Source: a phage. From it: a stretch of 64,000 nucleotides of DNA. The stretch lies in the sequence record PZ171032.1, one strand, 5' to 3'. The notes below the pieces were generated by a model. It did no database searches. It was not told where the DNA came from and saw only the letters and a program-made list of their open reading frames with translations. Positions 19,392 to 47,515 of the stretch are shown here, in pieces (position 1 is the first letter of the stretch; each line of letters starts with the position of its first letter). Position numbers and translations under genes: made by a program.

Positions 19392-22300
19392 TTAACGAGA
19401 AAAGGTTGCGTAGGCTTCTAGACGATACTGCTGGTCACCAGGGAACATAACACCTATAGAGGCTGTCCCTAGAATCCTGCCTTCCTTTCCAGACTCCATT
19501 CTGAACCCTACCCATCCTGAACTCCTTGCAGCCTCGATGTTGTCGCTATACCCGAAAGTGGCAAGATCGTCAACACCAGCCCCAAACAGCAACTGAAGCT
19601 GACTTCTCGGAAGCCCTATAATTTCAGGAATATACGCACCAAAGTACACCATCTGCCCTACCTTAGGACCGCTGCCGTACTCCATCGGTTTGCTTGTAGA
19701 GAAAGTCTTCATACCAGAAGTACCTGCCGGATTAGGGTATGCCCCGTTTGTTGCTGTACCTATCCACATTCTCCACTGTGGTGCCATCTGTTTGACAGTA
19801 AAAGATGTTGAAGACGTTTTGCGCCCTGCATCATCTGTAACTACAAACTTTATGGTGACATTCCCAGTAGCTTTAAATGTTACCAGTCCTGTGGTGGCAT
19901 CCACTGTTGCAATGTTGGTATTACTACTTTCCCAAGTCTTTCTAATCCCGGATACGTTGGAAGGGGTAATAGAAGGTTCCTGCATCTGCAGTTTACCGCC
20001 CACAATCCCTATGCCGTTGCCAGGATTATACAGTGCACCAACCTCGTCTATAATGTTCCCTGCTTTGAGACTATACTTCCTTGAGAAATTGTAGGTTCCG
20101 TTATAAGTGTGTGTCCCTGAGAAGGTGACATCTGCCTTCCCGTAAGAGATGCAAACCAACGCATACTTCCTGTCAGGCAACGTTTCTCCAGTCTCTGGGT
20201 GAGTTTTACCTACCTGGAACACACTCGGGTCAGTAGAGTCGTGACTATCACTAACGGAGCTTGGACCGCCCATCAACTGTGACAAACAATTCCTTACCCA
20301 TGTCCAGTTATTATCGCTGGAGAAGTCCACAGTCAAATCAAACACAACCCACTCATTTGGCTTCCACACAGGTGTTGTAATGGACTTGCCTACACCACCT
20401 CCTTGGAGTGTTGCCGACTGTTCAGTGATCAGGGCCGCATAGGCCAGAGTTCCTAAACTCAGAGTCTGGCTTGCTGTCCTCACTACCTTAGAATCAGCAT
20501 CTGTGAAGTTGTTGATGATTTGGAATGTGCCATAAGTGTTTTTACAGGTAATTCTGGCGTTCAGTGTGTCAATCTTCCTCACATCTGCCATAGCAGTGTT
20601 AGACACAGAGAAGTCAGAAGCTTTAGCTGAGTTTGCCGCAACAGCAGGATCAACGTTAAGAGTTGCGTTGAACTGACAAGCAGGAGTAACCAGTAGCTTG
20701 TTATCACCTATTTGCTTCCATGAAACACTTTGAACAGGGAGATTCCATTTAATACCTGAGAAAACCTTAGCAACCCTTGGCCCCAAAGCTCCAGTCCTGT
20801 TGTCTTTACAGCACATAGACATGGTGATCGTTGACGGAGTGGCCTGACCAAATAATTGCTGTGCTTTTGCAGAGGACATAGTGTAGAAATTGTCCTTAAC
20901 AAACTCATCAGCAGCTAAAGATCCATCAGCTCTCCACCACTGAACCTGATACCCTGTTTTGTCCCAACCACCGACCTGCTTCAAGTCCTCCCAGGAGATT
21001 TCCAGATCCCCGGTGGTAGGATTGATTGCAGCAGTTCCTGGTGTTCCAGATGACCATATTGGAATATCGAACCACGCTGGTTTAACCGACTGCACTGCGC
21101 TGGGACCTATTGCGGCAGCAAGTTGCTGGCCCATCAATACGCGAGCATCTTTCACCAGACCCCACTCAATCATAGACCCAGAGTAACCTTCTTTCTTGTA
21201 GGCTGAGGATCCGTTCAAATGGATGAGTCGGCTTGTGCCAAAGTTATGTGCTCCACCACCGTTGTCGTCTGCAAAATTGGTTATGATTCTGTCCCTGATA
21301 TTTTTCCATGCCCTGCCTCCAATCTCGTAGTCATGGTCATAACATCTTTGCAGTGTTGTCCAGCAAATGATCGCCATCCTTCTACCATTGCTGAAGCCAA
21401 AGGCCTGATCGTTAAGCTCTCTCCACAAGTAGCAGTTGGTGGTCCACATGGCCCTATGAATGTTAAACCAGTTTATAGATTTGGCTGAGTTGTTCCACTG
21501 AGTCCCAGGTAATTCAGGCCATACTGCATTAACCAGCATGTCTTCTGTTCCTGCATCAACCAGGAACCCTCTCACCTTCTTACCCATGCCTACCCTATCT
21601 TTTGCAATCCAACTGCCAAACAATCTCAGTTTTGGACCGTAGACAACATCTTCCGGATGCTCAAAAGAAATATATTTTAGGTATATTGTAGGGTCACCAT
21701 AGGTGCCATCACAAACAGCTTTGTGCATGTTCTCACCAAGGTCTAGACGAAGTCCTGTTACAACTCTAGACGTGTCGGTGAATTTGTCTGTTAAATCAAA
21801 CTCATACCACCACCAACCTGCACCCAACAATACTTTCTTACAACGCTGTGCATCTGTATCAGATATTCTCTTATCGCCTGCAAAAGGTGAGTCAGCAAAC
21901 TGATAGTGCAGAGCAACCTCAAAAGGATGTGTGGATGTCCCGTTTTCTGCAAGAACTTGTTTACCTATCAGGTCGCACTTAATGATCATCACAACACGTT
22001 TGTATCCGTTTGTTACCGGAATTTGCATGGACATGGATGTCCCATCCATGTTTGATCTCAGTGCAGTCATGATGATATAAGGGTCAACGGCATTGCCCAA
22101 AGTCTCAGGACCGGGGATTATCTTATACTTCTTGACCTGCCCCATGATGTAGTCACTTGCGTAAGTTGCCTCATTCAAGCAAGATCCTCCACCAGGTAAC
22201 TCACCAGGTCCCCAGAAAAATGCGCCGTAACAGTTGTAGAACCACTTGTTAGGATCGTATTTATTCTTGAAGGTCTGAACCTCGTTGGCCTGTTTTGTCA

Positions 22301-25028
22301 AGAAAACCTGCGTGTCTGTGAAGATTGCAGGGTTTACTCTCGCCTGTCTTGGAGGGTAACCTGTAGTTTGGTTAAACCACAAATTACAAGAGTAATCCCT
22401 CATATAGTCATAATCAGAGTATTTGTTTACATCTTCGTTCCAACACATGTTTAGGTTGGTACCGCCCATGCATACAATATATTCTGCGACATACTTATCA
22501 CTTCTGGTAGGAATACCTATGAACCATCTGTTAACAGGCTCATCCCAAGCTGTGCGCTCATCTTTAACGCAGATAGCAATCCAGTCATGTGTTCCTGTTT
22601 TCTTGCACACATCTCGCTTCATACCATAGTAGAACTCTTTAGTATTCGGCTCAGGTGCATTTATCAGGTAACTCCATGCCTGATTTGCATAAGTTCCATT
22701 GGTGCGTGGATCATGATCAAAGGCATACATGATGATCCTTTCCCCACCAAGATGTTCGCCAAGAGTAACTTTGACATTCACATCGCCGTAACCATTGCGA
22801 ACAACATCCATATTGTCAATAGAGATGCCTCTGGGAGTGTAGGCAATCTTCAGCGAGTTATCCTCACTAGTGCCACCAAGTGTAATCCCTATGTTGTTTG
22901 TTGTCCCGTCGGCATATCTTACTGTGGCTTCCCAGCGTATTCCGAAATATCCTGCATCATGGCTAACAATTTTCAGTGTACGAGCACCAGAGTTAGGTTT
23001 TCCAGGATCAGGCCAAGGATTTGGATGTTCATGGACAGTCAACGATGTCCCGTTTTGCTCGTTGACCTGCAACATTTTACCGCCTCTGCCGTTAGGGTTG
23101 AACTCCCACAAGGCTTGTGTTTTCACAATATTGTCATACGTGGTACGTCTCTGATCGTAGATCTCCTGAGTCACATCGTAGGTTACAGACCCGGCATCCA
23201 TTCTATGGAGTCGTACTATATACGATGTATCGCCTTCTACAGCAGGTTGAGCTGCGTTAAGCCCGAAGTATACAGTATCGTTGACATGGAACTGTTTGTT
23301 TCTACCGACAGTATGCCACTTGCCGTTGGACGGGTACGCTGGGACGATAGTGTTCCAGTTCAAAGTCCTTGTTGTGTGGGTTCTGCCTGTGCCATGTTTG
23401 TCATGATAGGTTATTTTTACAGAGTACAGTCCACGTCTGTTAACATTTCTGTTATATTGGGTAACAACAACTTCGTTGGCCCCGCCGTGGTTCCAGTTGG
23501 TGGAGAATTGGTAATTTGCATCTGTAACAACCGTGCCTGCAGCATTTACCAGTTCAATCTTGTCAATAATGAACGTAGCCCCCTCTGGCTGAGGCTTCAA
23601 TTTCATCTTGACCGTGTCACCAATGTAAATATTGCTAACGCTGCTAACACCGTTAACTTCGAAAATATAATCAACACCCCAACTGTCTACTGGGACATTT
23701 TTATACCAATTCTCAGGAACCTCTGTGAACCCCTGGCTATTAAGTCTGCCGCCAAACAGGTTGTTAGATCCTGCAAAACTTCCCCTTGGGATGCCTGACC
23801 ACCAAAGTTTACCATTAACAACAGTAAAGGTTCCTAAGAAACCTTCTCTGTGGATGCCTTGGAAATAAACACTCTCTGTCCAGCTAACTGGCAGGCGTTG
23901 CTCAACATATTTAGCTGTAGCAAGAGCTTGATAGTGGATAAAATTAGCCCTAGGGCTATTGTTTGCAGATTGTGCACCAATATCATTACACAAGTTGCGA
24001 GAGAATCCACGATACTGTTTAGTGCCATTATTGAAGAAAATGCCACTTGTGCCATATCCACGAGCCATTATCACCTCATGGGTGTAGGTGATATTTAAGG
24101 AACGCCATGTGTCATCTCCCCAGACGTCTTGCCCGTAGAATACGTTAACAAGCTGCTGGTCATTGGGTTTGTGCATCCTCTGTGTGGCAATTATTGCCCC
24201 GTTAGGGCCACACATAAACCCTTTCCACTCCTCATCTGCAGGAATGCCCCTCAAATCGTTACGAGTAATCTGCACAGGGGGCCAAACAAGGTCGTTTCTA
24301 CTGTTATTTCTCAGAAAGTCGTATCCAGCAATCCAGAAACCCCTAGGACCACCGAAAATAACAGAGTTGTCATGCACCTCACAGTTGATGCTTGGGTTTT
24401 TCCAAGGGCCTGTTTCAGGATTTTCCGATGTCTCACCAATCTTTACAGGGGTTGCATGCTGATTTTTATCTACATGCAAAGATCCGTAGGTGTTGTTACC
24501 AGATCCATACAGGTTAAGTATGCCAGTACCTTCTGCCTCTGCAATAACCCAGACAGTGTTGTTAATACCGCCCATCACCTCAATAAGGCGTTCTGGGTGG
24601 GTGTCAAGGTGCAATCCTTTAACAATCTGCTCTGGGAGTGGTGTCCACTCGTTTACGCAAACATCATTACCGCCTGCCGCAGTGGATCCGATAAGACCTG
24701 CAGTGCAGCCGATGTAGAAAAACTGGTTATCAAAAGTCCGGATCACAAACGCGCGGTCTGCTCTCCACACATGATCAACATTCCAGGCTGTTTCGCTCGG
24801 ATAGTTTATAGGGCTACGATCCCCAGTGCGGCACTCTCCGAACTTGTTATAGCCAGTAATATTAAGCTGACCATCATCAAAAAGTATAGCTAAGCTATTT
24901 ACATAGGATACTGTGTTGCTTGTACCATCACTGTTGTCTATTGGGTATGACAGAACAGCAAGTTCCTTAATTCCACCCCTCTTATCGAGGAAATGACGAC
25001 CAAGTTTTAGCAAAGGGATTGGAAGCAT
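19392..25028 (-). CDS. giant virion-associated protein (1878 aa), probable tail fiber/tailspike with RCC1-like N-terminal repeats
   Basis: Largest ORF in the window, at the distal end of the fiber cluster; N-terminus has RCC1-like repeat signatures ('ILFDDGQLNITGYNKFGE', 'VWVIAEAEGTGILNLYGSGNNTYG'); Trp/Tyr/Asn-rich. Confidence 0.6.
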   Translation of the reverse strand: MLPIPLLKLGRHFLDKRGGIKELAVLSYPIDNSDGTSNTVSYVNSLAILFDDGQLNITGYNKFGECRTGDRSPINYPSETAWNVDHVWRADRAFVIRTFDNQFFYIGCTAGLIGSTAAGGNDVCVNEWTPLPEQIVKGLHLDTHPERLIEVMGGINNTVWVIAEAEGTGILNLYGSGNNTYGSLHVDKNQHATPVKIGETSENPETGPWKNPSINCEVHDNSVIFGGPRGFWIAGYDFLRNNSRNDLVWPPVQITRNDLRGIPADEEWKGFMCGPNGAIIATQRMHKPNDQQLVNVFYGQDVWGDDTWRSLNITYTHEVIMARGYGTSGIFFNNGTKQYRGFSRNLCNDIGAQSANNSPRANFIHYQALATAKYVEQRLPVSWTESVYFQGIHREGFLGTFTVVNGKLWWSGIPRGSFAGSNNLFGGRLNSQGFTEVPENWYKNVPVDSWGVDYIFEVNGVSSVSNIYIGDTVKMKLKPQPEGATFIIDKIELVNAAGTVVTDANYQFSTNWNHGGANEVVVTQYNRNVNRRGLYSVKITYHDKHGTGRTHTTRTLNWNTIVPAYPSNGKWHTVGRNKQFHVNDTVYFGLNAAQPAVEGDTSYIVRLHRMDAGSVTYDVTQEIYDQRRTTYDNIVKTQALWEFNPNGRGGKMLQVNEQNGTSLTVHEHPNPWPDPGKPNSGARTLKIVSHDAGYFGIRWEATVRYADGTTNNIGITLGGTSEDNSLKIAYTPRGISIDNMDVVRNGYGDVNVKVTLGEHLGGERIIMYAFDHDPRTNGTYANQAWSYLINAPEPNTKEFYYGMKRDVCKKTGTHDWIAICVKDERTAWDEPVNRWFIGIPTRSDKYVAEYIVCMGGTNLNMCWNEDVNKYSDYDYMRDYSCNLWFNQTTGYPPRQARVNPAIFTDTQVFLTKQANEVQTFKNKYDPNKWFYNCYGAFFWGPGELPGGGSCLNEATYASDYIMGQVKKYKIIPGPETLGNAVDPYIIMTALRSNMDGTSMSMQIPVTNGYKRVVMIIKCDLIGKQVLAENGTSTHPFEVALHYQFADSPFAGDKRISDTDAQRCKKVLLGAGWWWYEFDLTDKFTDTSRVVTGLRLDLGENMHKAVCDGTYGDPTIYLKYISFEHPEDVVYGPKLRLFGSWIAKDRVGMGKKVRGFLVDAGTEDMLVNAVWPELPGTQWNNSAKSINWFNIHRAMWTTNCYLWRELNDQAFGFSNGRRMAIICWTTLQRCYDHDYEIGGRAWKNIRDRIITNFADDNGGGAHNFGTSRLIHLNGSSAYKKEGYSGSMIEWGLVKDARVLMGQQLAAAIGPSAVQSVKPAWFDIPIWSSGTPGTAAINPTTGDLEISWEDLKQVGGWDKTGYQVQWWRADGSLAADEFVKDNFYTMSSAKAQQLFGQATPSTITMSMCCKDNRTGALGPRVAKVFSGIKWNLPVQSVSWKQIGDNKLLVTPACQFNATLNVDPAVAANSAKASDFSVSNTAMADVRKIDTLNARITCKNTYGTFQIINNFTDADSKVVRTASQTLSLGTLAYAALITEQSATLQGGGVGKSITTPVWKPNEWVVFDLTVDFSSDNNWTWVRNCLSQLMGGPSSVSDSHDSTDPSVFQVGKTHPETGETLPDRKYALVCISYGKADVTFSGTHTYNGTYNFSRKYSLKAGNIIDEVGALYNPGNGIGIVGGKLQMQEPSITPSNVSGIRKTWESSNTNIATVDATTGLVTFKATGNVTIKFVVTDDAGRKTSSTSFTVKQMAPQWRMWIGTATNGAYPNPAGTSGMKTFSTSKPMEYGSGPKVGQMVYFGAYIPEIIGLPRSQLQLLFGAGVDDLATFGYSDNIEAARSSGWVGFRMESGKEGRILGTASIGVMFPGDQQYRLEAYATFSR

Positions 25029-25047: not shown

Positions 25048-25069
25048 AACCGCCCCGTCAGGAGCGGTT
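25048..25069 (-). terminator. weak terminator-like hairpin
   Basis: aaccgc / gcggtt stem with a 10-nt loop; U-rich tract follows on the minus strand. Confidence 0.25.
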
Positions 25070-25076
25070 AGATATA

Positions 25077-26822
25077 TTAACGTTGTGCAATTACTACGTC
25101 TACAATATCACCAACACCACAATATGTTAATTGCAGCAGGGTAACACTGTTAGCCTTGTTGTTAATAACAGGTGTTGCCGACAGGATAGCATACTTATCG
25201 TGCAAAGTCACGTTGTGACCTACAGCATCCTGAATGACATAGATAACTGCAGTGAATGGATAAGGTTTATCTTCCGCTGATGTCCCAGGCCACTGCCCTA
25301 TTGTAAAATCCCCTTTAGCGTGGACAACATACATACTGGCCTGCCCGTTAGGTGTCCATGTCCCACTAGATGCGTCAACCTCCTCTAAGTCAAAGTCTAC
25401 TTTTCCTGCATGGAAAGAAGGGGCGGTGATAGTTTTACCTGCCTCGATCTCTTGTGAGGTGGTTATCTTGCCACTAGAGTTGATACCATTACAGACAAAG
25501 TTAACATTAGAGAAATCTGGCAACCACCCTGTCACTGTGCCAGAAATCTCAAGGTTATGCAGGCGTGTTGTTCCTGTGCCGTTGTCATTTAAGCTAACAT
25601 CACCATTTACCTGCAAGTTTCTGGTAACGTTGCAGTTTTCAGAGTTTGCAGTTGTTGCAGTTAAAGTGGTTGTTGTCAGCTCGGTAATTATGCCTTTGTT
25701 GGCTGTAAGACCTTCCCCTTCAAAAGTTGCACGCTCATTGACTCTCAGGGTATTCAGAGCTATGTTTTGGATAGAGGCTGTACCTCGAATAACTACAGAC
25801 CCGCCAACCTCTAAATCGCCATTTACCAATGCATCGCCCGTGCTTTCAATGTAGCTAGGGTAGATCATGGTGCCATCGACAGAGTAGGTTATCCCTGTAA
25901 CGGTGCCTGTCACCTCAAGGTTCTTAACCCTAGCGGTCCCATCGACCTGCAATGTCGGTTCGGTTGCTGCCTTCATGGCATTGCCACGAATGTACACGTA
26001 GTCAAAAAAGTTATTACCCAGACCATCAAAATGCACATCGTTATTATTAGCCACTGGTTTCCCAGAAGTTATAGTGTCAGCTATAATCCTGTGGGTGGAC
26101 ACTTCATGAGGTTGCAGCTCTGTGCTTCTCCAGTCTGCATGCTTAGGATCGCTCCACGCAAAAGTAAGTGTAGAAGTATTTGCCGTGAGGATCAGGTTCC
26201 TGAAGCGTGCATTGGAATCTGCTCCATTAACAGGCCCATGTAAGGTAAGTGTGCCCCCAACTATGGTGTTGGCAAGTTCTGTAAGACCTTTTACCACCAA
26301 AGACCCTACAGTAACTTTCATCCCCTCCATGGCTTTAAATATACTATCTACATAGTCAACAACAAACTCTGTGTTTGCTATAGACTCAGACTTATCGTCC
26401 ATTGGAGGAGTAGGTACTCGCGGGTCACCTTCGAACCTTGGGCTGTTAAGTTTTGCGTAGTATTTTGCCATTACTGCAGAGTCGGTGTATAATCTCCAGT
26501 TTGGAGATTGTGAAGGATCTGCTGGCATTCTAACCGGGTTAGATTTTGATGCTGCGGGAGCGTACCACCACTGAGGGCCTGTGTCCCCTTTAAACTCATA
26601 CAACTGGTTAAAAACTGTTGTGGATGCACCATACGCCCAAGGGATTGGTGGCGTTTTAAAATAAAGGGTGTCAAGCATGGCTTTTCGTACCGTAGGGATA
26701 GTGGTCCCATCCTCTACGACAACTTCATCCACAGCGTTACCGTTGACAATCAAGTGCAAACGTTCAGAATCAACAATTACTTGATCTACCGCCTGCTCGA
26801 AGCTTGTCATGTCTTGCGCCAT
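25077..26822 (-). CDS. tail fiber/tailspike-like protein
   Basis: 581 aa, Thr/Asn/Gly/Val-rich repetitive beta-strand-like sequence ('NLEVTGTVTGITYS', 'LEISGTVTGW'); located in the fiber cluster. Confidence 0.5.
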   Translation of the reverse strand: MAQDMTSFEQAVDQVIVDSERLHLIVNGNAVDEVVVEDGTTIPTVRKAMLDTLYFKTPPIPWAYGASTTVFNQLYEFKGDTGPQWWYAPAASKSNPVRMPADPSQSPNWRLYTDSAVMAKYYAKLNSPRFEGDPRVPTPPMDDKSESIANTEFVVDYVDSIFKAMEGMKVTVGSLVVKGLTELANTIVGGTLTLHGPVNGADSNARFRNLILTANTSTLTFAWSDPKHADWRSTELQPHEVSTHRIIADTITSGKPVANNNDVHFDGLGNNFFDYVYIRGNAMKAATEPTLQVDGTARVKNLEVTGTVTGITYSVDGTMIYPSYIESTGDALVNGDLEVGGSVVIRGTASIQNIALNTLRVNERATFEGEGLTANKGIITELTTTTLTATTANSENCNVTRNLQVNGDVSLNDNGTGTTRLHNLEISGTVTGWLPDFSNVNFVCNGINSSGKITTSQEIEAGKTITAPSFHAGKVDFDLEEVDASSGTWTPNGQASMYVVHAKGDFTIGQWPGTSAEDKPYPFTAVIYVIQDAVGHNVTLHDKYAILSATPVINNKANSVTLLQLTYCGVGDIVDVVIAQR

Positions 26823-27109: not shown

Positions 27110-28156
27110 TTAAGCATAAGATATAGTGATCCATTGACCGTTTACAAGTTTTTGGATAGCACCTGTCCAGTAATCACCTTGATAAGGGTGTTTATAAGCG
27201 TAGTTACCAGAGCACATCACATGTCCAGGGTAGACTCTTGACTCTCTGTAGGTGGTTTTGAAACGGTTCGCTATCCTTACATCGTCAACCCCTCTACTGG
27301 GCATAGGGACAGTAAGGTTACCACTACCGTCTGCGCTGTTACCGTTTACCCTGCGGACCACGTTTCTTCCACCAACGGTTGCATATTGGCCTCTAACGGT
27401 TTCATCGTTACAATCAACTCTTCCACCTATTTGAGCGCTTCCGCAGGATTGTTGTCCGTTAACAGTGGCTCTTGGTATCGTGACCGCATTGGCATTTGCA
27501 GAGGAACTTTTTGCATCGTTGCATTCAAGATTTCCTTGGATAGCCAGTCTTGCACGGTTGGCAGTTATAGCATTGAGCTTCATAGCCGAAAACACAGTCT
27601 GCCCACCAGAAGGTTGAAATCTCCAACGGAACCCGTCTATTTGGTGAGAAGGATCATCAAGGTCTGTGCCGTCAGCACCACCGATGTTGTCCATAATCCA
27701 GAAGTCCATCGTCGTCTTGTCTGGAGTTATGGTGGTATATATTGCCGCATTGTCTGTTGACGCAGATGCAAACTCGATTCTTTGAAGGCCTAAAGTTTGA
27801 GTCTGAGTCATTATGTCTCCAGACTTGTCAACATACAGATCGTCCATTTCTTCAGGCGAGTATACATTGAGAACTTGACGTGCAGCAGCTTTGTCTGGAA
27901 CGTCTGCTAGATTATTAGTGACCCTTAAGAATCTATTATCCCATCCTGGGACAACATCTTCTGTTAAATGCTTTAACCACGCAGAAAGCATGTGAAGTTC
28001 AAAGTTAACAACTTCACATGCCACTCTTTGTGTCATATCCCAACCTTTCAATCTCTCTTCTTTTTTTGGTTGAGACTTATTCAACTCTCCCGTATTTTCA
28101 AGCACAACATCCTGATTGGCCCAAATATCAAGAGGGATAACTGGTTTAGTCATCAC
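27110..28156 (-). CDS. tail fiber protein with P2 gpH-like C-terminal tip (paralog 2)
   Basis: 348 aa; C-terminus '...AIQKLVNGQWITISYA' resembles the conserved P2 H / Mu S tip ending; paralogous to 29168..30208. Confidence 0.7.
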   Translation of the reverse strand: MMTKPVIPLDIWANQDVVLENTGELNKSQPKKEERLKGWDMTQRVACEVVNFELHMLSAWLKHLTEDVVPGWDNRFLRVTNNLADVPDKAAARQVLNVYSPEEMDDLYVDKSGDIMTQTQTLGLQRIEFASASTDNAAIYTTITPDKTTMDFWIMDNIGGADGTDLDDPSHQIDGFRWRFQPSGGQTVFSAMKLNAITANRARLAIQGNLECNDAKSSSANANAVTIPRATVNGQQSCGSAQIGGRVDCNDETVRGQYATVGGRNVVRRVNGNSADGSGNLTVPMPSRGVDDVRIANRFKTTYRESRVYPGHVMCSGNYAYKHPYQGDYWTGAIQKLVNGQWITISYA

Positions 28157-28183
28157 GTTCTCCTGAGAAAATTCCTTAGGACT

Positions 28184-28212
28184 ATTTTAACACTTTAGGG
28201 AACAAAATGCAA
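28184..28212 (-). promoter_or_regulatory. sigma70-like promoter with extended -10 (TGnTAAAAT)
   Basis: On the minus strand: -35 TTGCAT, 17-bp spacer, TGT-TAAAAT; sits right after the 28212..28233 terminator and before the fiber gene. Confidence 0.4.
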
Positions 28213-34481: not shown

Positions 34482-34514
34482 GTCACTCCTCCGGTATGAA
34501 AATCTCTACAAGGT

Positions 34515-34543: not shown

Positions 34544-34561
34544 TCTGAGCATAAAAATAAA

Positions 34562-34577
34562 CCCCGCCGAAGCGGGG
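34562..34577 (-). terminator. rho-independent terminator
   Basis: ccccgc-cgaa-gcgggg hairpin followed on the minus strand by TTTATTTTTAT. Confidence 0.65.
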
Positions 34578-34586
34578 CTTTAAAGG

Positions 34587-39169: not shown

Positions 39170-39723
39170 ATGATCGGGCGGCTCGCCACCTGATCCACAT
39201 ATTTAAAAAATCTGTCATTATCGTTTCTTGAGCTGTGGCTTTCCTCCGTGTACCGATAAGGAAAACCTCTTAACCAGCTGTTGAAGATGGAAGAGATGGA
39301 TATGGACAAAGCACTATTCTCACCTGTCTGAATAGCCATATCTGTTATAAGTCCGTCAAACAAGCCATTAGTTGTAACAGGTAGACCATTCTCCATAGCG
39401 GTAATGTACAACGTGGCACGACAACCAGAATACTCCGTCTTCAGCAGATCACCCACATACTTAGGATCAAACCCGTTTAATGTTGCTACCACAGATCCGA
39501 AGTTGGTGGCATCTTTCTCAGACACAGCAGTTAATGTTGCTGATCCCCCTATCCCTATAAAATGTTGCCCCTCAATTACTACAACACCAGTGCCTGAGCA
39601 CACTCTGACAGTTCCTGTCGGTAGCTCCAGCTTTGCAGCAATTAAGATCTCAACACCATCAAGCTCCAGCTTTTCAAGAAATAAATTATCTAATGGCGCT
39701 CTGATCATCTTAGAAATCCTCAA
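39157..39723 (-). CDS. hypothetical tail-associated protein
   Basis: 188-aa ORF co-transcribed with the fiber genes. Confidence 0.5.
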   Translation of the reverse strand: MRISKMIRAPLDNLFLEKLELDGVEILIAAKLELPTGTVRVCSGTGVVVIEGQHFIGIGGSATLTAVSEKDATNFGSVVATLNGFDPKYVGDLLKTEYSGCRATLYITAMENGLPVTTNGLFDGLITDMAIQTGENSALSISISSIFNSWLRGFPYRYTEESHSSRNDNDRFFKYVDQVASRPIIWEV

Positions 39724-40300
39724 AGAAGTTGATAACTATATTATCACCTTTTTGCATAGCATCGACTTTTTGCTTAATTTTATAAATATCTCTGATATGA
39801 AACCTACCCTTCGGGGATTGAGTTATTATCTTCATAGTGTCCCCTGCGGCAATAGGTTTTCTAAGTCTTGGAGATATGCTTATAACAGCAGACCCAACAC
39901 CATCGCTACGCACTGGAGCTGTTACCACTTTCAATTCATCATTGACAGATATTTTATCCCCAGCTCTGGCTATGTCTCTGTTTGGCTCCCACCCAACCGT
40001 CTTCAAAAAATCGTCGTTACCAGTAGGCCCAAGGGCGATTGGCTCATTAGCTGTTACCGAGTGACCGTAAGTTTTAATAAGAAAGATGTTCCCATCTTTA
40101 TACACCTGATCAACAAAGCTCTTAAGCTCTAGCAACTGTGACTCGCTGATATTGGAAACCGTCAAAGTGCCTTTCCAGTTGGGTGTGGCATAGGTTACTT
40201 TTTGCGTTTTACCTGTAAACGGACTTTTAAACGTAACAATATCTGCCAGCAGCTCCAATCTAATATCTGGAAGGTATCTAGGCCTTTCCCATAAAAACAT
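39710..40300 (-). CDS. hypothetical tail-associated protein
   Basis: 196-aa ORF, first gene after the 40373 terminator and promoter. Confidence 0.5.
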   Translation of the reverse strand: MFLWERPRYLPDIRLELLADIVTFKSPFTGKTQKVTYATPNWKGTLTVSNISESQLLELKSFVDQVYKDGNIFLIKTYGHSVTANEPIALGPTGNDDFLKTVGWEPNRDIARAGDKISVNDELKVVTAPVRSDGVGSAVISISPRLRKPIAAGDTMKIITQSPKGRFHIRDIYKIKQKVDAMQKGDNIVINFFEDF

Positions 40301-40331
40301 TGTGCCTCCAGGTTAAACAATCATGATAATT

Positions 40332-40360
40332 ATTTTACCAGATTTTGAGTTAATACGCAA
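40332..40360 (-). promoter_or_regulatory. sigma70-like promoter with extended -10
   Basis: On the minus strand: -35 TTGCGT, 17-bp spacer, TGG-TAAAAT (reverse complement of 40332-40340). Confidence 0.4.
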
Positions 40361-40372: not shown

Positions 40373-40392
40373 GCCCCCGCCGAAGCGAGGGC
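40373..40392 (-). terminator. rho-independent terminator
   Basis: gcccccgc-cgaa-gcgagggc hairpin (one mismatch) followed on the minus strand by TTTTTGTTTG. Confidence 0.5.
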
Positions 40393-40399: not shown

Positions 40400-43300
40400 T
40401 TACTTCAGTTTCTCTTGCAACCCAGCAACAACCTCTGTCAATTTTTTAACCTGCTCCTCAAGGGCAGTTATTTTATCGTCCTGTTCCCTGCAAACCTGGA
40501 CAAGCAAGCCTGTTACAGCTGCGTAATCCACGCTGTAGAATCTTTCCTCTGTTATTAAAGGAGTTCCATCCTGATCAGGGTTTGGGATTTCCTTGCTTTG
40601 CACGAAAGAGCTAACTGCTTCCGGCAGCGCTTCAAGCACTTCTTGTGCTATAACACCTGCATAAGGCATACCATTCTCTTTTAAAGTGTAGGTATAGCCC
40701 TTCATCTTCCTGATAGCTTCTAACGCGTTAGGAATAACCTCTATGTTATCCTTCAGGTCGCGGTCAGAGTTTTGGTTCACAGATACACAGTTCACTGCAC
40801 CGTTTACAGAAAGGTATCTTGATTTATCTGGCAAGGTACCACAATGCCATACCCAATTTGATTGAGAATCGTCAAGAACCTTAAACTCCAACACGTTTGG
40901 ACGATTTCCTGTACTGCCGTTGCCCCAATAGTGCATATGAGCGCTATTCGCAGGCATGTTGCCACCGTTATTAGTAACATGGCTTCCAGAAATATATACC
41001 TTTAACTCTGAGGTCGGTATTTCCCCTTCGGGAGTTGTTCCTCCATATCTGAAGCTAACACCATTGCCACCTGTTTGGGTCCACGGGCCCCAAGTGAAGG
41101 TTTGTCTCACCATATTACCATAACGTATAAATCTATCGCCGTGATAGGTAATATACTCTTGAACACACCCATTACCGTTATTGGCGTTATTCTGCAACAC
41201 AATAAGTGTTCCAGCTTCATTTACCGGATAATGACGATCATATGTTGCATCATTATTTGCCGATTGATGGTAAATGCCTTCCCACAACCCATTATAGGTG
41301 TCAAGGTCTGAGGTACCGAGACCCTGACCCCTGTGCTGCATAGCTTTATTCCAGGGGTGGTGATTACCGCCTTCTATAGACCTGGTGTATAAGTTACTTT
41401 GTCTGCCAGCAATCTGGAAAGCGTAGTTTCCCGAGAATCCTACAGATAAACCTCCTACAACCATGGTGTCTTGTGGACCGTTAACATTACCAGCCATTAT
41501 TTTTGACGGGTTATTAGGCCCGAACTGGTTGTTCCAGTCTCCACCAGTATGACATACAAAACCACCTGGGGCTGAAAAAGTACCATCCTTATTGAAGTTG
41601 TAGAATCTATGAGCTGTGCCCACAACATCTCGAACAATAACTTGACCAGCCTCTGGAGTAGACCTGAACTCTGCTTGACCTTTAAGGCCAGCACCATTAC
41701 CGCATTTAGAGGTAAACGTGCCGTTAGTTAGATCCTCTGTTCCATCTGATGCACACTGGAATCCTGCGTTAGAGAATAGCGCCTTTCTAGGACCACTGTA
41801 GCACAAATAGTCAAAACCGTCAGCCCATAGCTCTACTTTAGGCATGTTCATTTTGCTCATTATCGCATAGCGTTCAGCAGTGCCTATATAGTGCCACTGT
41901 GTGCCGCCGCCAGTGTAGAACCCTGAAGTCCCTTTGAAGTCAACAATAGGTCTAGTGTTGGTATTGTTATCTCCAAGAACAGCCAGATTTAAATCTGCTG
42001 ACTGGAGAGGTGCAACGAACTTAACACCGTCCTGATTGTTTGTTACAGAGCCGACTTGATAATCTTGCTCTCTGGTAAACACTTCGACAACATTTCTACT
42101 TGCGTATATGCTGACAGGGAAAGCACGAGCCTCTGCATAGAAAGCAACATACTCTTGTTTACCCCTTGTTGGAGCAACCATCCCAAGAAGTGCTTTTTCA
42201 TTTTGATAGAAATTCACTACCCCGTAGAAAGAGTCCCCTCTATCTGTCCAACCACCAGTTCTATAGTGACACTGTAAGGTGGCGCAGTTCATAGGGTCAC
42301 CGCCGGATGACGATCTGGTGACTAGGGTAATATCAGTGCCAGTTGCTGGAGCATAATACGGATCTGTTCTAACGATGATTGGGTAGTATTTCCCATCTTC
42401 CATCCCTGCAGTTCTTGGCAGTGTTAAGAAATCTTTGACACCCGCAGCTATAGGAACTTTGAACAGATTCTGAGCATCTGCCAGGGTTGTAGCCCCTGTA
42501 CCACCTGCTGCATGAGGTAAAGGTTCCCACTTAGCCTTCCGGTTGTTATAAACACCCCACTCCAGACTTCCGTTACCGGATTCGTCCATCCCACCATCCC
42601 AGATAACCATCTTGGCGGCTTTCTTGGACCCCCAGAAGCCTCTTTCTGCTCCTGAACTACGGATCCACTCTCCAAGTCCCCAGTTTGTCAGCTGACCAGT
42701 AAGATCCCCAACCTGCATGTATTTAGGGCAGTCTAATACACCGTCTTCGCGGAAACCTAGATATCTATGAGTTTCAGATCCTTTTGCACCTTTGTGCAGG
42801 TGGATTGTCAACCAAGCTTTATTGTCGTTTCTTACCTCAGAGTAGATCCTATATCCATGCTCAAGGACACCGTCAGCGCTATATTTGTCCCCGTTAACAA
42901 TACCGGATGCTGACTTAACATCAGCAGAACTTTGAGACAGGTAAAGGTGCCCGAAGGTAGGGGAGTTTCTAGACCCGAGACCGATGTGCGATCTAAAGGT
43001 ATCATCGTTACGAGGTCTGACCATCGGCTGCCATGAAGTCCACTGGTTTGTGTTGGCCTGATAGGTTCTCAAATACCAAACATCTACGTTAGAGAATGGA
43101 TAGTATTCCTGACGACAGCCTGTACCGCCGTTAGCATTGTTCTGCCAAACAATCAAGTGACCAGCACCAGAACCTGCAGGGTAACCATTTGCCTCGGTTG
43201 CATAAGCAGTCATCGGCTGATAGTATACACCATCCTGATTACCAGTCAAGTTATTGATATTGAAATTTGGCTCAAGGGCTGCACGTTGCTTATAGAAAGC

Positions 43301-44212
43301 CCCTAAGTTAATGCGTGCACCTGCGGCATCTCTGGCCCCAGTACCGCCTTGCTCTATAGCAAGAGGTTGCCACGAAGCTGTTTGTTGGTTCCACATGCCC
43401 CAACGGCCTGTTGCATCAAGCTGCAAGTACCCTGCTGTGTTTAAATCATCTCCAGCACGGATAACTGTTCTTGTTGGGTTGTTTGCCTCTAGGCGTTTAA
43501 ATTCATCACGAAGTGCTATTCTTTTTGTTGTTGCTACACCGTTGGTTACTGCAATGGTATACATGGCTCCGGTGGTAGCGCCACGGAAAATACCATCAAC
43601 AGTTGTAGTATCACGACGAGATACCACACCATTCAGAAATTTTTCACCAGCTGCTACAGAAGGGTAGTTGGTAGTTCTTCCCTCTTCAATAACTGCAGGA
43701 CCAACAAAGTTATCAAGGTGAATAACATCACCTACAGTGTGCACTGTACCAAAATCTACACGCTGTGCAAGTGCTTTAGCATCGTTAGCTGTCTGAACAG
43801 TAACATCCATTACATCCTGGACAGACTGCCCTTCGGCTGTCATAATCATAGATGCACCAATGGTAGATTCCAGCTCCTCCCTTAGGGACGGGTCAGTATA
43901 TACCATCCATGCAGCGTCAGTAATCCCACCATCTGAGTACGGTGAAGACAATGCAGGAACAGTGTGTGGAAATTCGCCTTTCCAACGCAGGTAGAGGTCT
44001 TCCTCTTCGAAGTAGGCAAAATCCATTGGGCCGTTTAACTTACCACCTTCCTTAAAGGAGATTACATGAGAAACAGTCCCATCAACATGGACAACATCGC
44101 CAATTTTTACACGACGGGTCAGGTCTGGTTGTTGAACAACCAGGTAATCATCCTCTGTCACTGCGGTAGTGGCAGGAAGAGATTCAATTCTGACAACTTT
44201 AATATCAGCCAT
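40400..44212 (-). CDS. tail fiber/tailspike (1270 aa) with C-terminal intramolecular chaperone domain (peptidase S74-type)
   Basis: C-terminal 'NQNSDRDLKDNIEVIPNALEAIRKMKGYTYTLKENG...AGVIAQEVLEALPEAV' matches the autoproteolytic chaperone signature (SDxRxK ... GxIAQEVxxxLPEAV); N-terminal ~100 aa homologous to the 46847..47515 product. Confidence 0.85.
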   Translation of the reverse strand: MADIKVVRIESLPATTAVTEDDYLVVQQPDLTRRVKIGDVVHVDGTVSHVISFKEGGKLNGPMDFAYFEEEDLYLRWKGEFPHTVPALSSPYSDGGITDAAWMVYTDPSLREELESTIGASMIMTAEGQSVQDVMDVTVQTANDAKALAQRVDFGTVHTVGDVIHLDNFVGPAVIEEGRTTNYPSVAAGEKFLNGVVSRRDTTTVDGIFRGATTGAMYTIAVTNGVATTKRIALRDEFKRLEANNPTRTVIRAGDDLNTAGYLQLDATGRWGMWNQQTASWQPLAIEQGGTGARDAAGARINLGAFYKQRAALEPNFNINNLTGNQDGVYYQPMTAYATEANGYPAGSGAGHLIVWQNNANGGTGCRQEYYPFSNVDVWYLRTYQANTNQWTSWQPMVRPRNDDTFRSHIGLGSRNSPTFGHLYLSQSSADVKSASGIVNGDKYSADGVLEHGYRIYSEVRNDNKAWLTIHLHKGAKGSETHRYLGFREDGVLDCPKYMQVGDLTGQLTNWGLGEWIRSSGAERGFWGSKKAAKMVIWDGGMDESGNGSLEWGVYNNRKAKWEPLPHAAGGTGATTLADAQNLFKVPIAAGVKDFLTLPRTAGMEDGKYYPIIVRTDPYYAPATGTDITLVTRSSSGGDPMNCATLQCHYRTGGWTDRGDSFYGVVNFYQNEKALLGMVAPTRGKQEYVAFYAEARAFPVSIYASRNVVEVFTREQDYQVGSVTNNQDGVKFVAPLQSADLNLAVLGDNNTNTRPIVDFKGTSGFYTGGGTQWHYIGTAERYAIMSKMNMPKVELWADGFDYLCYSGPRKALFSNAGFQCASDGTEDLTNGTFTSKCGNGAGLKGQAEFRSTPEAGQVIVRDVVGTAHRFYNFNKDGTFSAPGGFVCHTGGDWNNQFGPNNPSKIMAGNVNGPQDTMVVGGLSVGFSGNYAFQIAGRQSNLYTRSIEGGNHHPWNKAMQHRGQGLGTSDLDTYNGLWEGIYHQSANNDATYDRHYPVNEAGTLIVLQNNANNGNGCVQEYITYHGDRFIRYGNMVRQTFTWGPWTQTGGNGVSFRYGGTTPEGEIPTSELKVYISGSHVTNNGGNMPANSAHMHYWGNGSTGNRPNVLEFKVLDDSQSNWVWHCGTLPDKSRYLSVNGAVNCVSVNQNSDRDLKDNIEVIPNALEAIRKMKGYTYTLKENGMPYAGVIAQEVLEALPEAVSSFVQSKEIPNPDQDGTPLITEERFYSVDYAAVTGLLVQVCREQDDKITALEEQVKKLTEVVAGLQEKLK

Positions 44213-44247: not shown

Positions 44248-46845
44248 TTAAAGGTACAATCCACGGTATTGAGCATAGAGGCCCAGACCGCGAAGGATTT
44301 CGCCAGAGTGATAGCCTACCGGATCAGAAACTGCCCAGCAGCCGTTTAAAACATTATCCCCATTAATGAAGTGGTGCTTTTGCAGTAGCTTCACACAGGC
44401 TTCTACAACAATGTCTATTTGAGGTATTGTCTCTGAATACCCGCACAGACCTAGCCAGCAGCAACCTGCAAGCCATTCACCTACCACCCACATCCTGTCT
44501 CCTCTGTCTTGATAAGAATATCCCCCAGAGGTGTTAAAGTCTGTAGGCAGATTTCCTGAATGAGATGACTGGAATCTGTTGAGGAACCATGCCCATTTCT
44601 GGCAGAACAGGAATAGTCTTTCATCAACAGGTTCTTTATGTTTCTTGAGCTCATATATTGTGCGGCACGCAGCAACAAAAGATCTTGACTGGAGCTTAGA
44701 GTTATCTACCATCTCCCACCAACCAGCCAACCCTTCATTACCTCTTTGCCATACATAACGTGAGGCAACTGGACCCTCTGTCTTAAATGTATTGTTATAC
44801 CAGACTTGAGCGTCATACAGAAAGCCTATTGTATTTGACAATCTATGGCGATCTATGTTTTCTGCACCCATGCAGTAGACTGCTGGGTATTGCATGCCAG
44901 GATAGGGCCAATTTGGCCTTTCCTCTAAAAGATAGTTTTCCTTATCTATTACCTTTCCGGCAGGGAACACACCTGGTGTGTGCCTGTATGCACCTTGCTT
45001 GTAGTTTCTGACATAGCAATCGCCAACCTTAGCGGTTGATTCTGTCTTGCTTGCCATCCACACGCTAAACCAGATTAGATAAGCATCTCTATCTGCAATA
45101 TAGAATTGCGGCAGCGTGTTGACGCAATACAGATCAAACAAGCCATTACCTATCTGCCTGTCGCTTAGGCTGAAATCTACAGAGGTGAGCCCCTTAGGAT
45201 TAGCAAAGAAAGGTTTAATCTCTTCTTCGGTGTGATGAGGTTGTGTCGGATCTAGTTTGAAATCTCCTAGAGTAAGAGTTTCTGTTATCCATTGTCCATT
45301 AGTGGCATATAGATCAGCATACCATAACCACCTGTCTTTGTCAAGAAATTTGACCCTTACCATCTCATCATCTGATCGATAAGTTACTGAGTTTAAAGAA
45401 ATCTCTCTCCCAAAATTGAAAGTTACTTTACCTCTTGCTATATTACAACGGGTGAAGTTGTCAGAGTGGTTGTAAATGTCTGTATCATACTGCATACTAA
45501 CACTAGCGCCACCGCTTACGGCAATGTTTTCCTCTTTAGGTAAGAGATACGGATTACCGTCTTTACCAACTACCTCTACGAAATCAGTAACCTTGGCAAC
45601 TATTTCTGTTACCTCTGCCCCTCCAAAAGGAACCCCTATCCTGTACTGTTTTTTGTTATTGTTGCCATCATTAAGGATGAAATGTGGCTGGAACAGAACC
45701 CCTTCTCCTCCGAAATTCATAACAATTTCAGCATCTCTGCCTATTTTGTATGTAGTCCCTTTTTGAATTATTTCGCAAGGCTGGCGTGCGTTCATTCTAA
45801 AATTGATATACCCGTCACTGTCCCTGCTCATGACAGGAACTGTTCCTGCAACAAGACAAGCACCATCTGTAAACGGTGCCTTAACCAACGTGGTCTTTCT
45901 AAACAGTTTGTCGTAGGCGTTTATGTCACTGAAATTAAGCAACTTGTTGTAAGACTGTTTAAACGCGGTGTAATACTTTTCCTCACCTGTCAAGGTGTAG
46001 AGTTGATAACAAGCGTCACACCACATTTCTTCCCCGTCCAACTCTGGGGCCTGATTATCTGCAACCACGTTTATAGGATTTACAATTACAGGGGATCCTG
46101 CAGGTATCACCGATCCACCCTGCTCTTGAGGTAATCTCACACAATAGGTTACCTTGTGGCTGCCTGTAACACCCTTATCTTGTAATTGGATTGTGCCGAA
46201 CTCTACAGACGTATGACCACTATCGGCTATGCTACCGTTAGCCCAATAGCGGTTACCATCCCATGCTATATACCACTCAACCCACCAACTTAATCCGGAT
46301 GTTGTCCAATCCGGGTTAGCATCTGTGCCGCCGTAAACATCAGAGTCTACAGTGTTTCTTCCTAACACACCGTTATACGCTTGGAATGCCTTGTCCAGGT
46401 ATTCCCCCCATGTCGGAGATCCAGCTGGGATTTTTCCTCTACCATTGGTAAAAGACACCACCACATCTTTAAACCCACCATGTGATGGAACCCCATCTGT
46501 GGATAGAGGGTAGTGGGACAATCTTTGCATTTTACTTTCTACTGCATATGCACCCAGAAGATGGCTATTGTAAGCTTCCCAAGCATCTTTTGCCCTATCC
46601 AAGTAGAAATCGCTTTTCGATGCCCTGTATGCTTCAATGTACCCCAGAATCAACACAGCTTGGGACTCATGCATTGCCCAATCATTATTTATCTTATTAC
46701 CTGACCACCCTGCAGCTATAAGACCATCAGGGTTTACTAGCTTATTTTGTGTAGGGGTGTTGGTAATACCTGTGTTGTTATCGAGGCACTTCCTGTGCCC
46801 CTCAATCATCTGAAATACGTTATCAATGTTGTGTTGAATACGCAT
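44248..46845 (-). CDS. tailspike-like protein with probable enzymatic (glycosidase/depolymerase-like) domain
   Basis: 865 aa, Trp/Tyr-rich ('SWWVEWYIAWDGNRYW', 'VGEWLAGCCWLG'); lacks its own N-terminal anchor; its start (ATG at 46843-46845) abuts the upstream adapter stop codon (46847-46849). Confidence 0.55.
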   Translation of the reverse strand: MRIQHNIDNVFQMIEGHRKCLDNNTGITNTPTQNKLVNPDGLIAAGWSGNKINNDWAMHESQAVLILGYIEAYRASKSDFYLDRAKDAWEAYNSHLLGAYAVESKMQRLSHYPLSTDGVPSHGGFKDVVVSFTNGRGKIPAGSPTWGEYLDKAFQAYNGVLGRNTVDSDVYGGTDANPDWTTSGLSWWVEWYIAWDGNRYWANGSIADSGHTSVEFGTIQLQDKGVTGSHKVTYCVRLPQEQGGSVIPAGSPVIVNPINVVADNQAPELDGEEMWCDACYQLYTLTGEEKYYTAFKQSYNKLLNFSDINAYDKLFRKTTLVKAPFTDGACLVAGTVPVMSRDSDGYINFRMNARQPCEIIQKGTTYKIGRDAEIVMNFGGEGVLFQPHFILNDGNNNKKQYRIGVPFGGAEVTEIVAKVTDFVEVVGKDGNPYLLPKEENIAVSGGASVSMQYDTDIYNHSDNFTRCNIARGKVTFNFGREISLNSVTYRSDDEMVRVKFLDKDRWLWYADLYATNGQWITETLTLGDFKLDPTQPHHTEEEIKPFFANPKGLTSVDFSLSDRQIGNGLFDLYCVNTLPQFYIADRDAYLIWFSVWMASKTESTAKVGDCYVRNYKQGAYRHTPGVFPAGKVIDKENYLLEERPNWPYPGMQYPAVYCMGAENIDRHRLSNTIGFLYDAQVWYNNTFKTEGPVASRYVWQRGNEGLAGWWEMVDNSKLQSRSFVAACRTIYELKKHKEPVDERLFLFCQKWAWFLNRFQSSHSGNLPTDFNTSGGYSYQDRGDRMWVVGEWLAGCCWLGLCGYSETIPQIDIVVEACVKLLQKHHFINGDNVLNGCWAVSDPVGYHSGEILRGLGLYAQYRGLYL

Positions 46846-46846: not shown

Positions 46847-47515
46847 TTAGATAGCTCCTGCGATAATCAGTGCCCCGTACCAAGTTAACCCGTTGTCGTA
46901 GGTTTCCAACTTGAAAATATCTGTTGCACCAGCTGTAAATGTTAGGATAGGATCTCTTCCGTAGGACCATTTAACATTACCAGGCCAATAGACTTTGTTG
47001 CCGCCAGAGGTCTGAGTAATGCATACGGTTATAGTTCTCGCCACTCCTTCAAGACCTTCTGTTTGATTTTCAAAAGAGATTGTGGTATTTGAAGTTAGTC
47101 GAACCTTAAAGGTATCCGCAACTTCAAGATCCATATCAAGCTGACCACCGATAGATCCGTAATCAACTATTCTGCCAGAAGAAGTTGCAGCAAGCTCACC
47201 AAAAACAGACCAGGCATTTGCAGACACACCCCCAGCACCCTCTACAGTGGAGTCTGGGAGGATTATTTTAGGATAATCCCCGTTCCACGTGTAGTAGCGC
47301 TTAGTTTCTGGGTCATAAGCAAAGTCCTTCTTGCTCTTAAGATAACCACCCTCTGTGAAATAGACTATCTTAGTAATGCTAAGATCGTTGACAACATCGT
47401 CAATCTTAGCCTTTCTTGTCCCATCAGTCTGGTTGACAACCAAGAAGTCATCACTCAGGACTGTTTCTGCATCTTCAAGATCTGGAATTGGTATTGTAGG
47501 ATAAGCTACAGCCAT
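46847..47515 (-). CDS. tailspike adapter/anchor protein
   Basis: 222 aa; N-terminus 'DDFLVVNQTDGTRKAKIDDVV...FTEGGYLKSKKDFAY' is homologous to the N-terminus of the 40400..44212 fiber. Confidence 0.55.
   Translation of the reverse strand: MAVAYPTIPIPDLEDAETVLSDDFLVVNQTDGTRKAKIDDVVNDLSITKIVYFTEGGYLKSKKDFAYDPETKRYYTWNGDYPKIILPDSTVEGAGGVSANAWSVFGELAATSSGRIVDYGSIGGQLDMDLEVADTFKVRLTSNTTISFENQTEGLEGVARTITVCITQTSGGNKVYWPGNVKWSYGRDPILTFTAGATDIFKLETYDNGLTWYGALIIAGAI

Follow-up and report, generated by a model that had tools for sequence, protein, structure and literature searches.

The 64,000-nucleotide stretch of phage DNA analysed here (sequence record PZ171032.1, referred to below as the window; GC content 44%) comes from a Vequintavirus, an rV5-like Escherichia coli myophage (Vequintavirinae). 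Positions 19392 to 47515, the subject of this analysis, carry nine large open reading frames (ORFs), all on the minus strand. From right to left they encode proteins of 222, 865, 1270, 1381, 690, 346, 348, 581 and 1878 amino acids (aa). A preliminary description had listed nine ORFs with fibre or spike features, and all are present at exactly the coordinates given there. They are genes with family matches and orthologues: each product matches a PHROG tail or tail-fibre family or contains a Pfam fibre domain, and each shows 94-100% aa identity to an annotated protein of phage rV5, RudolfGeigy or ECML-10. When 23 ORFs of the window were compared by tblastn with these three phages, the gene order proved to be the same as that of rV5 gp27-gp43. 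The nine large ORFs are orthologues of rV5 gp27, gp28, gp30, gp33, gp34, gp37, gp41, gp42 and gp43, whose names are used below. At the DNA level, the segment 19392-44212 (24.8 kb) is 96.2% identical to ECML-10 over 100% of its length. This segment is matched by 133 phage records, 61 of which cover at least 80% of the query, and every taxonomically placed match belongs to Vequintavirus. In its left part, the window shows 98% identity to phage Gotham and to other phages. Judged by gene content and order, region 19392-47515 is thus the published, already known multi-fibre host-recognition locus of the rV5 type.

Allelic variation relative to rV5 sits in the three largest genes, gp27 (94% identity), gp41 (95%) and gp37 (~81-86%); the other proteins are 98-100% identical to their rV5 orthologues. 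Gene content, domains, orthology, operon signals and the predicted fold of gp42 were established in the window itself. Virion presence, the three visible fibre sets, the dependence on the N4 glycan receptor (NGR) and on the lipopolysaccharide (LPS) core, and conditional essentiality are taken from the literature on phages that are 94-100% identical.

The tape-measure, tube-initiator, hub, spike and sheath-initiator genes (47525-53653) precede the fibre genes in transcription order. Within the fibre block, genes for wedge subunits, a fibre chaperone and small ORFs are interspersed among the fibre genes (Table 1), so that the earlier picture of fibre genes simply following the baseplate genes has to be modified. 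GC skew is negative across the fibre block and changes sign at ~19.3 kb, which fits a single long block of leftward transcription ending there. No tRNA was found within the window, and an explanation of the locus by tRNA or mobile elements was rejected.

Table 1. Genes and transcription signals of the fibre locus, in the direction of transcription (positions refer to the window; aa, amino acids)
Feature	Position	Strand	Size	Description
gp43 orthologue	46847..47515	-	222 aa	small anchor/adaptor protein; Tail_spike_N (Pfam PF18668, 2e-10)
gp42 orthologue	44248..46845	-	865 aa	globular, not fibrous; 99% identical to rV5 gp42
gp41 orthologue	40400..44212	-	1270 aa	long lateral fibre; N-terminal Tail_spike_N (PF18668), C-terminal Peptidase_S74 chaperone (PF13884)
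terminator	40373..40392	-		ends the tube-initiator-to-gp41 operon; 8-bp stem with 7 GC pairs, T-run; -16.9 kcal/mol
promoter	40331..40360	-		TTG, 17-nt spacer, TGGTAAAATA; before the gp40-gp37 cassette
gp40 orthologue	39710..40300	-	196 aa	Dit-like; PHROG 1302 'distal tail protein', 2e-50
gp39 orthologue	39157..39723	-	~183 aa from internal ATG	PHROG 2048 'tail protein', 9e-68
gp38 orthologue	38732..39169	-	~141 aa	DUF6950 (Pfam PF22262, 3e-33)
gp37-type	34587..38732	-	1381 aa	lambda-J-like central tail fibre; Pfam Ig_J, Ig_J_second, Phage_Tail_Tip
terminator	34559..34580	-		ends the J-type cassette; 9-bp stem, T-run; -16.5 kcal/mol
promoter	34514..34543	-		TTGACT, 17-nt spacer, TGGTAAAATA; before the wedge/gp34/short-fibre operon
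gp36 orthologue	32991..34481	-	496 aa	baseplate wedge subunit, not a fibre; Baseplate_J (Pfam PF04865)
gp35 orthologue	32293..32979	-	228 aa	second wedge subunit; PHROG 4056 'baseplate protein'
gp34 orthologue	30221..32293	-	690 aa	Calx-beta (PF03160), NCTSP_N, NCTSP TIM-barrel, poly-GlcNAc-deacetylase-like
gp33 orthologue	29168..30208	-	346 aa	short tail fibre paralogue 1, Mu-type
gp32 orthologue	28569..29153	-	194 aa	Tfa-type tail-fibre assembly chaperone; Pfam Caudo_TAP, 8.5e-12
promoter	28183..28212	-		TTG, 17-nt spacer, TGTTAAAATA; before gp30
gp30 orthologue	27110..28156	-	348-aa ORF; 347 aa from ATG at 28153	short tail fibre paralogue 2; PHROG 4465, 3e-165
gp28 orthologue	25077..26822	-	581 aa	baseplate-attached fibre: N-terminal helix, putative beta-helical shaft, C-terminal beta-sandwich head
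terminator	25048..25069	-		after gp28, ~20 nt before the gp27 start codon; terminator scan and folding
gp27 orthologue	19392..25028	-	1878 aa	conserved N-terminal module of ~200 aa; C-terminal immunoglobulin-like Big_2 (intimin-type, 4e-8)
terminator	19355..19376	-		closes the structural gene block at convergent transcription; -18.7 kcal/mol; GC skew changes sign

Appendage proteins and operon signals

The gp43 protein is 100% identical to its rV5 orthologue. Identity between its N-terminal ~100 aa and the N-terminus of the 1270-aa gp41 is 38%, and its small C-terminal domain (residues 109-222) is 42% identical to gp140 of phage phi92. The Tail_spike_N anchor present in both gp43 and gp41 is shared with classical beta-helix tailspikes (P22, CBA120 TSP type), and the PDB matches of these proteins include the N-domains of CBA120 TSP3 and TSP4; for gp41 they comprise tailspike N-domains and the S16 distal fibre. 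Closest to RudolfGeigy (98.5% identity), gp41 corresponds to class TC12 of RBPseg, seen with cryo-electron microscopy (cryo-EM) on Bas54. For gp42, the predicted model has an (alpha/alpha)6-barrel glycoside-hydrolase-like fold with beta-sandwich inserts, the barrel being that of the (alpha/alpha)6 glycoside hydrolases (GH8, GH48, GH76, GH88 and GH105 folds). Identity to the structural matches is only 9-13%, the protein matched no Pfam or NCBIfam family, and no CAZy-family membership was found by sequence. On the strength of the model, gp42 looks enzymatic and is predicted to be glycosidase-like. Its phi92 counterpart is the enzyme-like gp141 (35% identity, tblastn). The two genes are adjacent, gp43 has an anchor domain and gp140 is paired with gp141 in phi92, from which we infer that gp43 anchors gp42.

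Between the 865-aa and 1270-aa genes, a 35-nt gap (44213-44247, minus strand) holds a GC-rich hairpin, GGGGGCTGTTTGCCCCC, with a folding energy of -15 kcal/mol and no more than a short T tract. Rather than being a full terminator, it may act as an attenuator or as an RNA-stability element.

Further downstream, the two wedge subunits gp36 and gp35 are 32% and 29% identical to phi92 gp145, a wedge protein of solved structure, and gp146, respectively. The adjacent gp34 is 100% identical to its rV5 orthologue and 42% identical to phi92 gp142. It carries Pfam domains PF23845 (the TIM barrel, 4e-80) and PF23844, and in the PDB it matches Gp64 of phage N4 (9lc0, 2e-24). With N4 gp65/gp64, the NGR-binding sheath and appendage proteins, gp34 has in common the NCTSP domains and NGR dependence. 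N4 is, however, a podovirus, whereas the window carries the domain on a baseplate protein of a myovirus, one with an added Calx-beta. According to the literature on the gp34/gp142 family, gp34 is assigned as the receptor-binding protein for the NGR glycan (formerly 'ECA', enterobacterial common antigen). From its domains, it also looks enzymatic, as a predicted deacetylase.

The short-fibre block consists, in order, of gp33, gp32, a 104-aa coiled-coil ORF, a hairpin with a promoter, gp30 and an 88-aa ORF. The two fibre paralogues are 43% identical to one another and 99% (gp33) and 98% (gp30) identical to their rV5 orthologues. The N-terminus of gp33 matches the short fibre of phage phiTE (9cuy_c, 1e-19) and its C-terminus matches Mu GpS (5yvq), while gp30 belongs to RBPseg class TC1, seen by cryo-EM. 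The chaperone gp32 is 31% identical to phi92 gp148. For the small ORFs gp29, gp31, gp35, gp39, gp40 and gp44, relaxed scans against Pfam and NCBIfam yielded nothing usable.

The 581-aa gp28 is 98% identical to rV5 gp28. Over residues 8-325 it matches phiTE's baseplate-bound lateral fibre (9cuy_g, 1.8e-77), its N-terminus is 44% identical to that of phi92 gp150 and its C-terminus 48% identical to that of phi92 gp151. It fits the description of RBPseg class TC8. The AlphaFold2 monomer model is poor (predicted local distance difference test score, pLDDT, 51), with confidence at residues 480-580 only. A Foldseek search with this model returned the phiTE homologue and noise only. Homologues of gp28 carry precomputed matches to Pfam PF26208 and PF26209, neither of which was obtained for the window protein with the local Pfam-A; they are presumably newer phage-fibre families.

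The 1878-aa gp27, which matches PHROGs 15684, 215 and 11922, is 94-97% identical to its counterparts in rV5, RudolfGeigy and ECML-10 and 99.9% identical to that of ECP2303. Residues 1-197 are the only part that it has in common with phages of the Phapecoctavirus type. The protein is a putative accessory fibre or adhesin by these sequence features. Self-BLAST of the four largest proteins of the locus revealed no internal repeats.

Of the nine proteins, gp34 and gp42 alone look enzymatic, and the short fibres together with the J-like fibre are binders. None of the nine has a pectate-lyase or beta-helix Pfam match; in gp28, a bactofilin match stayed below threshold. Since only two enzyme-like folds were found and all nine proteins are 94-100% identical to known ones, the initial suggestion that each is a candidate for a novel depolymerase was overstated.

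Four strong intrinsic terminators, with GC-rich hairpins, T-runs and folding energies of -15 to -19 kcal/mol, directly follow gp41, gp37, gp28 and gp27. A promoter-like motif with an extended -10 element, TTG-N17-TGgTAAAATA, is present in five copies in the window, where 0.37 would be expected. Each copy is intergenic and lies on the coding strand of the structural genes, at 28183-28192, 34514-34523, 40331-40340, 54484-54493 and 58006-58015 (all minus). In the alignment of the five sites, TTG and TGnTAAAATA are invariant. Three of the copies fall within the fibre region, where they are located upstream of gp40, gp36 and gp30; the last overlaps, at its base, the hairpin (28212-28233) found after the 104-aa ORF. 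Such a pattern suggests that the motif is probably the promoter class of the structural operons of this phage. A generic sigma-70 scan gave no excess over shuffled sequence (41 vs 33.7±6.5; 28 vs 26.6±5.4). The four terminators and three promoters divide the locus into operons and bear out in part the statement that several of the fibre genes have their own terminator and promoter. No promoter motif was found in the gap 25029-25076 between gp28 and gp27, and the terminator lies within this gap, upstream of gp27. The latter gene is therefore probably expressed by terminator read-through, which would keep its copy number low.

The gp40-gp37 cassette

Genes gp40 to gp37 lie ~11 kb downstream of the tape-measure gene and make up a separate operon that has a promoter (40360-40331) and a terminator (34580-34559) to itself. 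All four are collinear with those directly following the tape-measure gene of the siphovirus JenP2 (Queuovirinae), to which gp40, gp39, gp38 and the 1381-aa gp37-type protein are 32, 38, 46 and 50% identical, respectively. The last of these matches lambda J in the PDB (8iyk, 2e-28) and PHROG 31 'central tail fiber J' (1e-159). Compared with JenP2 J, it has an inserted shaft of ~280 aa and a C-terminal extension of ~200 aa. It is 99% identical to its counterparts in ECML-10 and BP9, in which this long-shaft allele was already present, and it is 1381 aa long where rV5 gp37 and the proteins of RudolfGeigy and MaxBurger have 1279 aa. Relative to rV5 gp37, the divergent shaft (residues ~650-1050) is 102 aa longer and the two ends (N-terminal 650 and C-terminal 330 aa) are nearly identical. 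This places the variation in the shaft and not in the tip. The alignments to rV5 gp37 overlap one another, which could have suggested an internal repeat; this was rejected, as the overlaps stem from the divergent, longer shaft.

Homologues of gp40 and of the J-like protein in the phage collection fall into two groups. Within Vequintavirus, identity is at least 90% for gp40 and no lower than ~70% for the J-like protein, which varies more; the second group lies below 60%. Among the matches listed, the gp40 homologues outside Vequintavirus all belong to genomes of siphovirus size (42-83 kb, nearly all 42-61 kb).

The window thus has the collinear four genes and the J domains of a lambda-type tail tip (Dit/gpM, gpL-like, gpK-like and gpJ, as in JenP2, PY54 and lambda). 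Two differences should, however, be noted. The cassette is found in a contractile-tailed phage with its own sheath, hub and spike. In addition, a lambda-type tip is encoded directly after the tape-measure gene and is essential, whereas the window cassette is a separate operon, and two of its four genes, gp40 and gp37, are reported to be dispensable on E. coli K-12 in the related phage Bas54. The published annotation of gp37 is 'lateral tail fiber with fibronectin type III domain', and the similarity of its N-terminus to central tail fibres received a passing remark from RBPseg (2025). No paper was found that describes the four-gene cassette, its promoter and terminator, or its position in the virion. 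The cassette is the one under-described point of the locus. From collinearity and domain content, it is tempting to propose that gp40-gp37 (34587-40300) is a complete Dit/L/K/J tip cassette of siphovirus origin that was captured by a myovirus and is assembled, on a baseplate with its own hub and spike, as an accessory appendage that would extend the host range. We regard this proposal as possible, and rather doubtful than probable. The origin of the cassette in any case is a matter of the whole Vequintavirus genus and not particular to the window.

Comparison with related multi-fibre phages

Phage rV5 and the BASEL phages Bas49-Bas59 (including RudolfGeigy and MaxBurger) have the same gene order as the window and an orthologue for every protein. 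They share with it the two Mu-like short fibres and their chaperone, the N4-like deacetylase fibre, the S74 long fibre, the J-like fibre and the giant protein with immunoglobulin-like domains. The differences are allelic only.

More distant is the Justusliebigvirus phi92, described as a 'nanosized Swiss army knife'. The core in common comprises the wedge proteins gp145 and gp146, the short fibre gp147 with its chaperone gp148, and gp140, gp141 and gp142, and the N-terminal anchors of phi92 gp150 and gp151 are shared with gp28 and gp41, respectively. The shared proteins are, however, just 23-48% identical to those of the window. The phi92 endosialidase gp143 has no match in the window (tblastn). 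Of the colanidase gp150, only the first ~107 aa match gp28 and the catalytic domain is absent from the window. Conversely, nothing in phi92 corresponds to gp40-gp37 or to the 1878-aa gp27 (tblastn). By these comparisons, the window locus is of the rV5 type, although it would work in the manner of the phi92 system.

Baseplate structures have been published for phi92 and for phiTE (Vequintavirinae). In the Pectobacterium phage phiTE (Certrevirus; PDB 9CUY), two fibre types were modelled, and their N-terminal baseplate-docking parts are homologous to those of gp28 and gp33. This phage is flagellotropic and the distal parts of its fibres are unrelated to those of the window.

Outside the annotated relatives, ~16-18 unannotated MG0656xx records labelled 'Campylobacter phage' (host Campylobacter jejuni) are 94-96% identical to the window over the whole fibre locus. 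Their host label is probably a mis-attribution or reflects a co-isolated coliphage.

The arsenal that the preliminary description called unusually large is indeed large against phages in general, and it is the norm within Vequintavirinae. The idea of a multivalent adsorption apparatus of about eight fibre or spike units agrees with the domain and homology results and with the published near-identical phages. The phrase 'multivalent adsorption apparatus' itself appears in the title of the 2012 phi92 paper.

Host recognition: proposed mechanism and alternatives

The fibre proteins of close relatives have been studied experimentally. The rV5 genome paper (2013) analysed gp30, gp33, gp37, gp41 and gp43 as fibre proteins, and mass spectrometry of rV5 virions detected gp27, gp30, gp32, gp33, gp36, gp37, gp41, gp42, gp43 and gp45. 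Together with the structural matches described above, these data speak against most of the ORFs being non-structural. The BASEL study annotates the same genes and reports dependence on wecB (ECA) together with LPS outer-core glucose as terminal receptor; every BASEL Vequintavirinae phage tested showed the same wecB and waaC/waaG dependence (Maffei et al., 2021). In the same study, three co-expressed fibre sets were described and only the three largest genes were found to vary between phages. In later work, the primary receptor was renamed NGR and its binding protein was assigned to the gp34/phi92 gp142 family. For Bas49 and Bas54, RBPseg (2025) counted 'nine annotated tail fiber proteins'. Transposon sequencing by HIDEN-SEQ (2025) showed that bas54_0026, 0027, 0028, 0031 and 0041 tolerate insertions on K-12; these genes of Bas54 (MZ501093 in the BASEL supplement) correspond, by the Bas54 annotation, to gp42, gp41, gp40, gp37 and gp27. 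Different fibre genes were conditionally essential on different uropathogenic E. coli isolates. These published insertions provide the comparison of host ranges between gene knockouts that had been envisaged in the preliminary description, and they support multivalency.

Taking these data together, the locus is very probably the host-recognition module of a Vequintavirus, multivalent and equipped with accessory units. Confidence is high for the outline of the mechanism and low for the individual accessory units. Formed by the 496-aa and 228-aa proteins, the wedge would carry several sets of trimeric appendages. Binding, and possibly deacetylation, of the conserved NGR glycan by gp34 would let the particle pass the O-antigen layer. 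The short fibres gp30 and gp33, folded by gp32, would then bind LPS outer-core glucose as terminal receptor. By analogy with fibre III (gp147) of phi92, their rearrangement is presumed to trigger contraction. Five accessory units, namely the gp41 fibre, the gp28 fibre, gp43 with gp42, the gp40-gp37 cassette and gp27, would widen the host range. They probably bind or cut strain-specific surface glycans. Such units would not be required on rough K-12, but would be on particular wild isolates.

Several observations weigh against such a multivalent apparatus. The virion, receptor and essentiality data all come from relatives of the window phage. In the mass spectrometry of rV5, coverage was just 3-4% for gp27 and gp37 (3.1% for gp27), partly with non-tryptic peptides. 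Only three fibre types were located near the baseplate in the cryo-EM maps of Bas49 and Bas54 (RBPseg, 2025), and by the published descriptions they match the short fibre, the gp28-type fibre and the gp41-type S74 fibre. The BASEL label 'glycosidase' for gp28 is neither confirmed nor rejected, given the poor monomer model. Finally, Maffei et al. (2021) regarded the locus as mostly highly conserved and the phages as possibly monovalent in effect on K-12. It can accordingly be asked whether the particle is functionally monovalent, binding NGR via gp34 and the LPS core via the short fibres, with the other large proteins acting as scaffold, decoration or enzymes that remove exopolysaccharide or capsule but do not set specificity. 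In that case true receptor-binding proteins would be a minority of the ORFs, and to speak of an arsenal would exaggerate how many receptors are used. The 98-100% aa identity of gp28, gp30, gp33, gp34, gp42 and gp43 and the near invariance of the locus across more than 100 phages, unlike what would be expected of proteins chasing variable receptors (a point made by Maffei et al. as well), are in line with such a view, as are the three fibre sets of the cryo-EM maps, the globular, enzyme-like and non-fibrous nature of gp42 and the wecB and waaC/waaG dependence shared by the tested BASEL Vequintavirinae. However, the HIDEN-SEQ data make lateral-fibre genes conditionally essential according to the clinical isolate, gp27, gp37 and gp41 vary allelically, and the accessory proteins bear the N-terminal anchor modules of proven fibres. 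Functional monovalency therefore appears unlikely, but not negligibly so.

A narrower doubt concerns gp40-gp37 and gp27, which might be recent and largely dispensable cargo, rarely assembled or serving adherence to mucus or surfaces. Several features are those expected of cargo: the cassette has its own promoter and terminator, it is collinear with and 32-50% identical to the JenP2 tip genes, and outside Vequintavirus its homologues were found, among the matches listed, in siphoviruses only. The cassette and gp27 both lack a phi92 homologue, insertions in gp40, gp37 and gp27 are tolerated on K-12, and gp27 lies behind a strong terminator without its own promoter and has low mass-spectrometry coverage. 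Yet coverage of at least 80% is reached by 122 records for the J-like protein and by 110 for gp27. That the cassette and gp27 are kept across many Vequintavirus genomes argues for selection. Moreover, gp37 and gp27 are allelically variable, as expected of proteins in contact with the host, and conditional essentiality was observed by HIDEN-SEQ within the lateral-fibre locus. On this evidence, we consider the cargo explanation improbable. As for the idea that the ORFs are chance frames or decayed pseudogenes, it has next to no probability and was rejected on conservation: the frames reach 1878 codons at 44% GC, all have strong family matches, and 94-100% aa identity is maintained in dozens of independently isolated viable phages.

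Two features of the window outside the fibre locus may be recorded. At 14859-15883 (plus strand), three back-to-back ORFs of 87 aa (14859-15122, 15122-15385 and 15385-15648) are followed by an ORF of 77 aa. The first two are paralogues with 39% identity; the others are alike in size and charge pattern, with no BLAST homology. Together they are a small tandem gene family in the early region. At 8547-9731 (minus strand), a 394-aa ORF corresponds to the MoxR-type ATPase of the BASEL phages (bas52_0063). For its Bas54 orthologue, bas54_0063, HIDEN-SEQ reported an anti-defence role that is required against the predicted system DS-28.

Because every gene of the locus is near-identical to published rV5 or BASEL genes and the interpretation is in print, the window by itself adds nothing new to the biology of these phages. 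Its remaining value is a clean map of fibres, enzymes, wedge and chaperones, together with the operon structure. The multi-fibre phages of this group have a broad host range and are used in cocktails and in host-range engineering.

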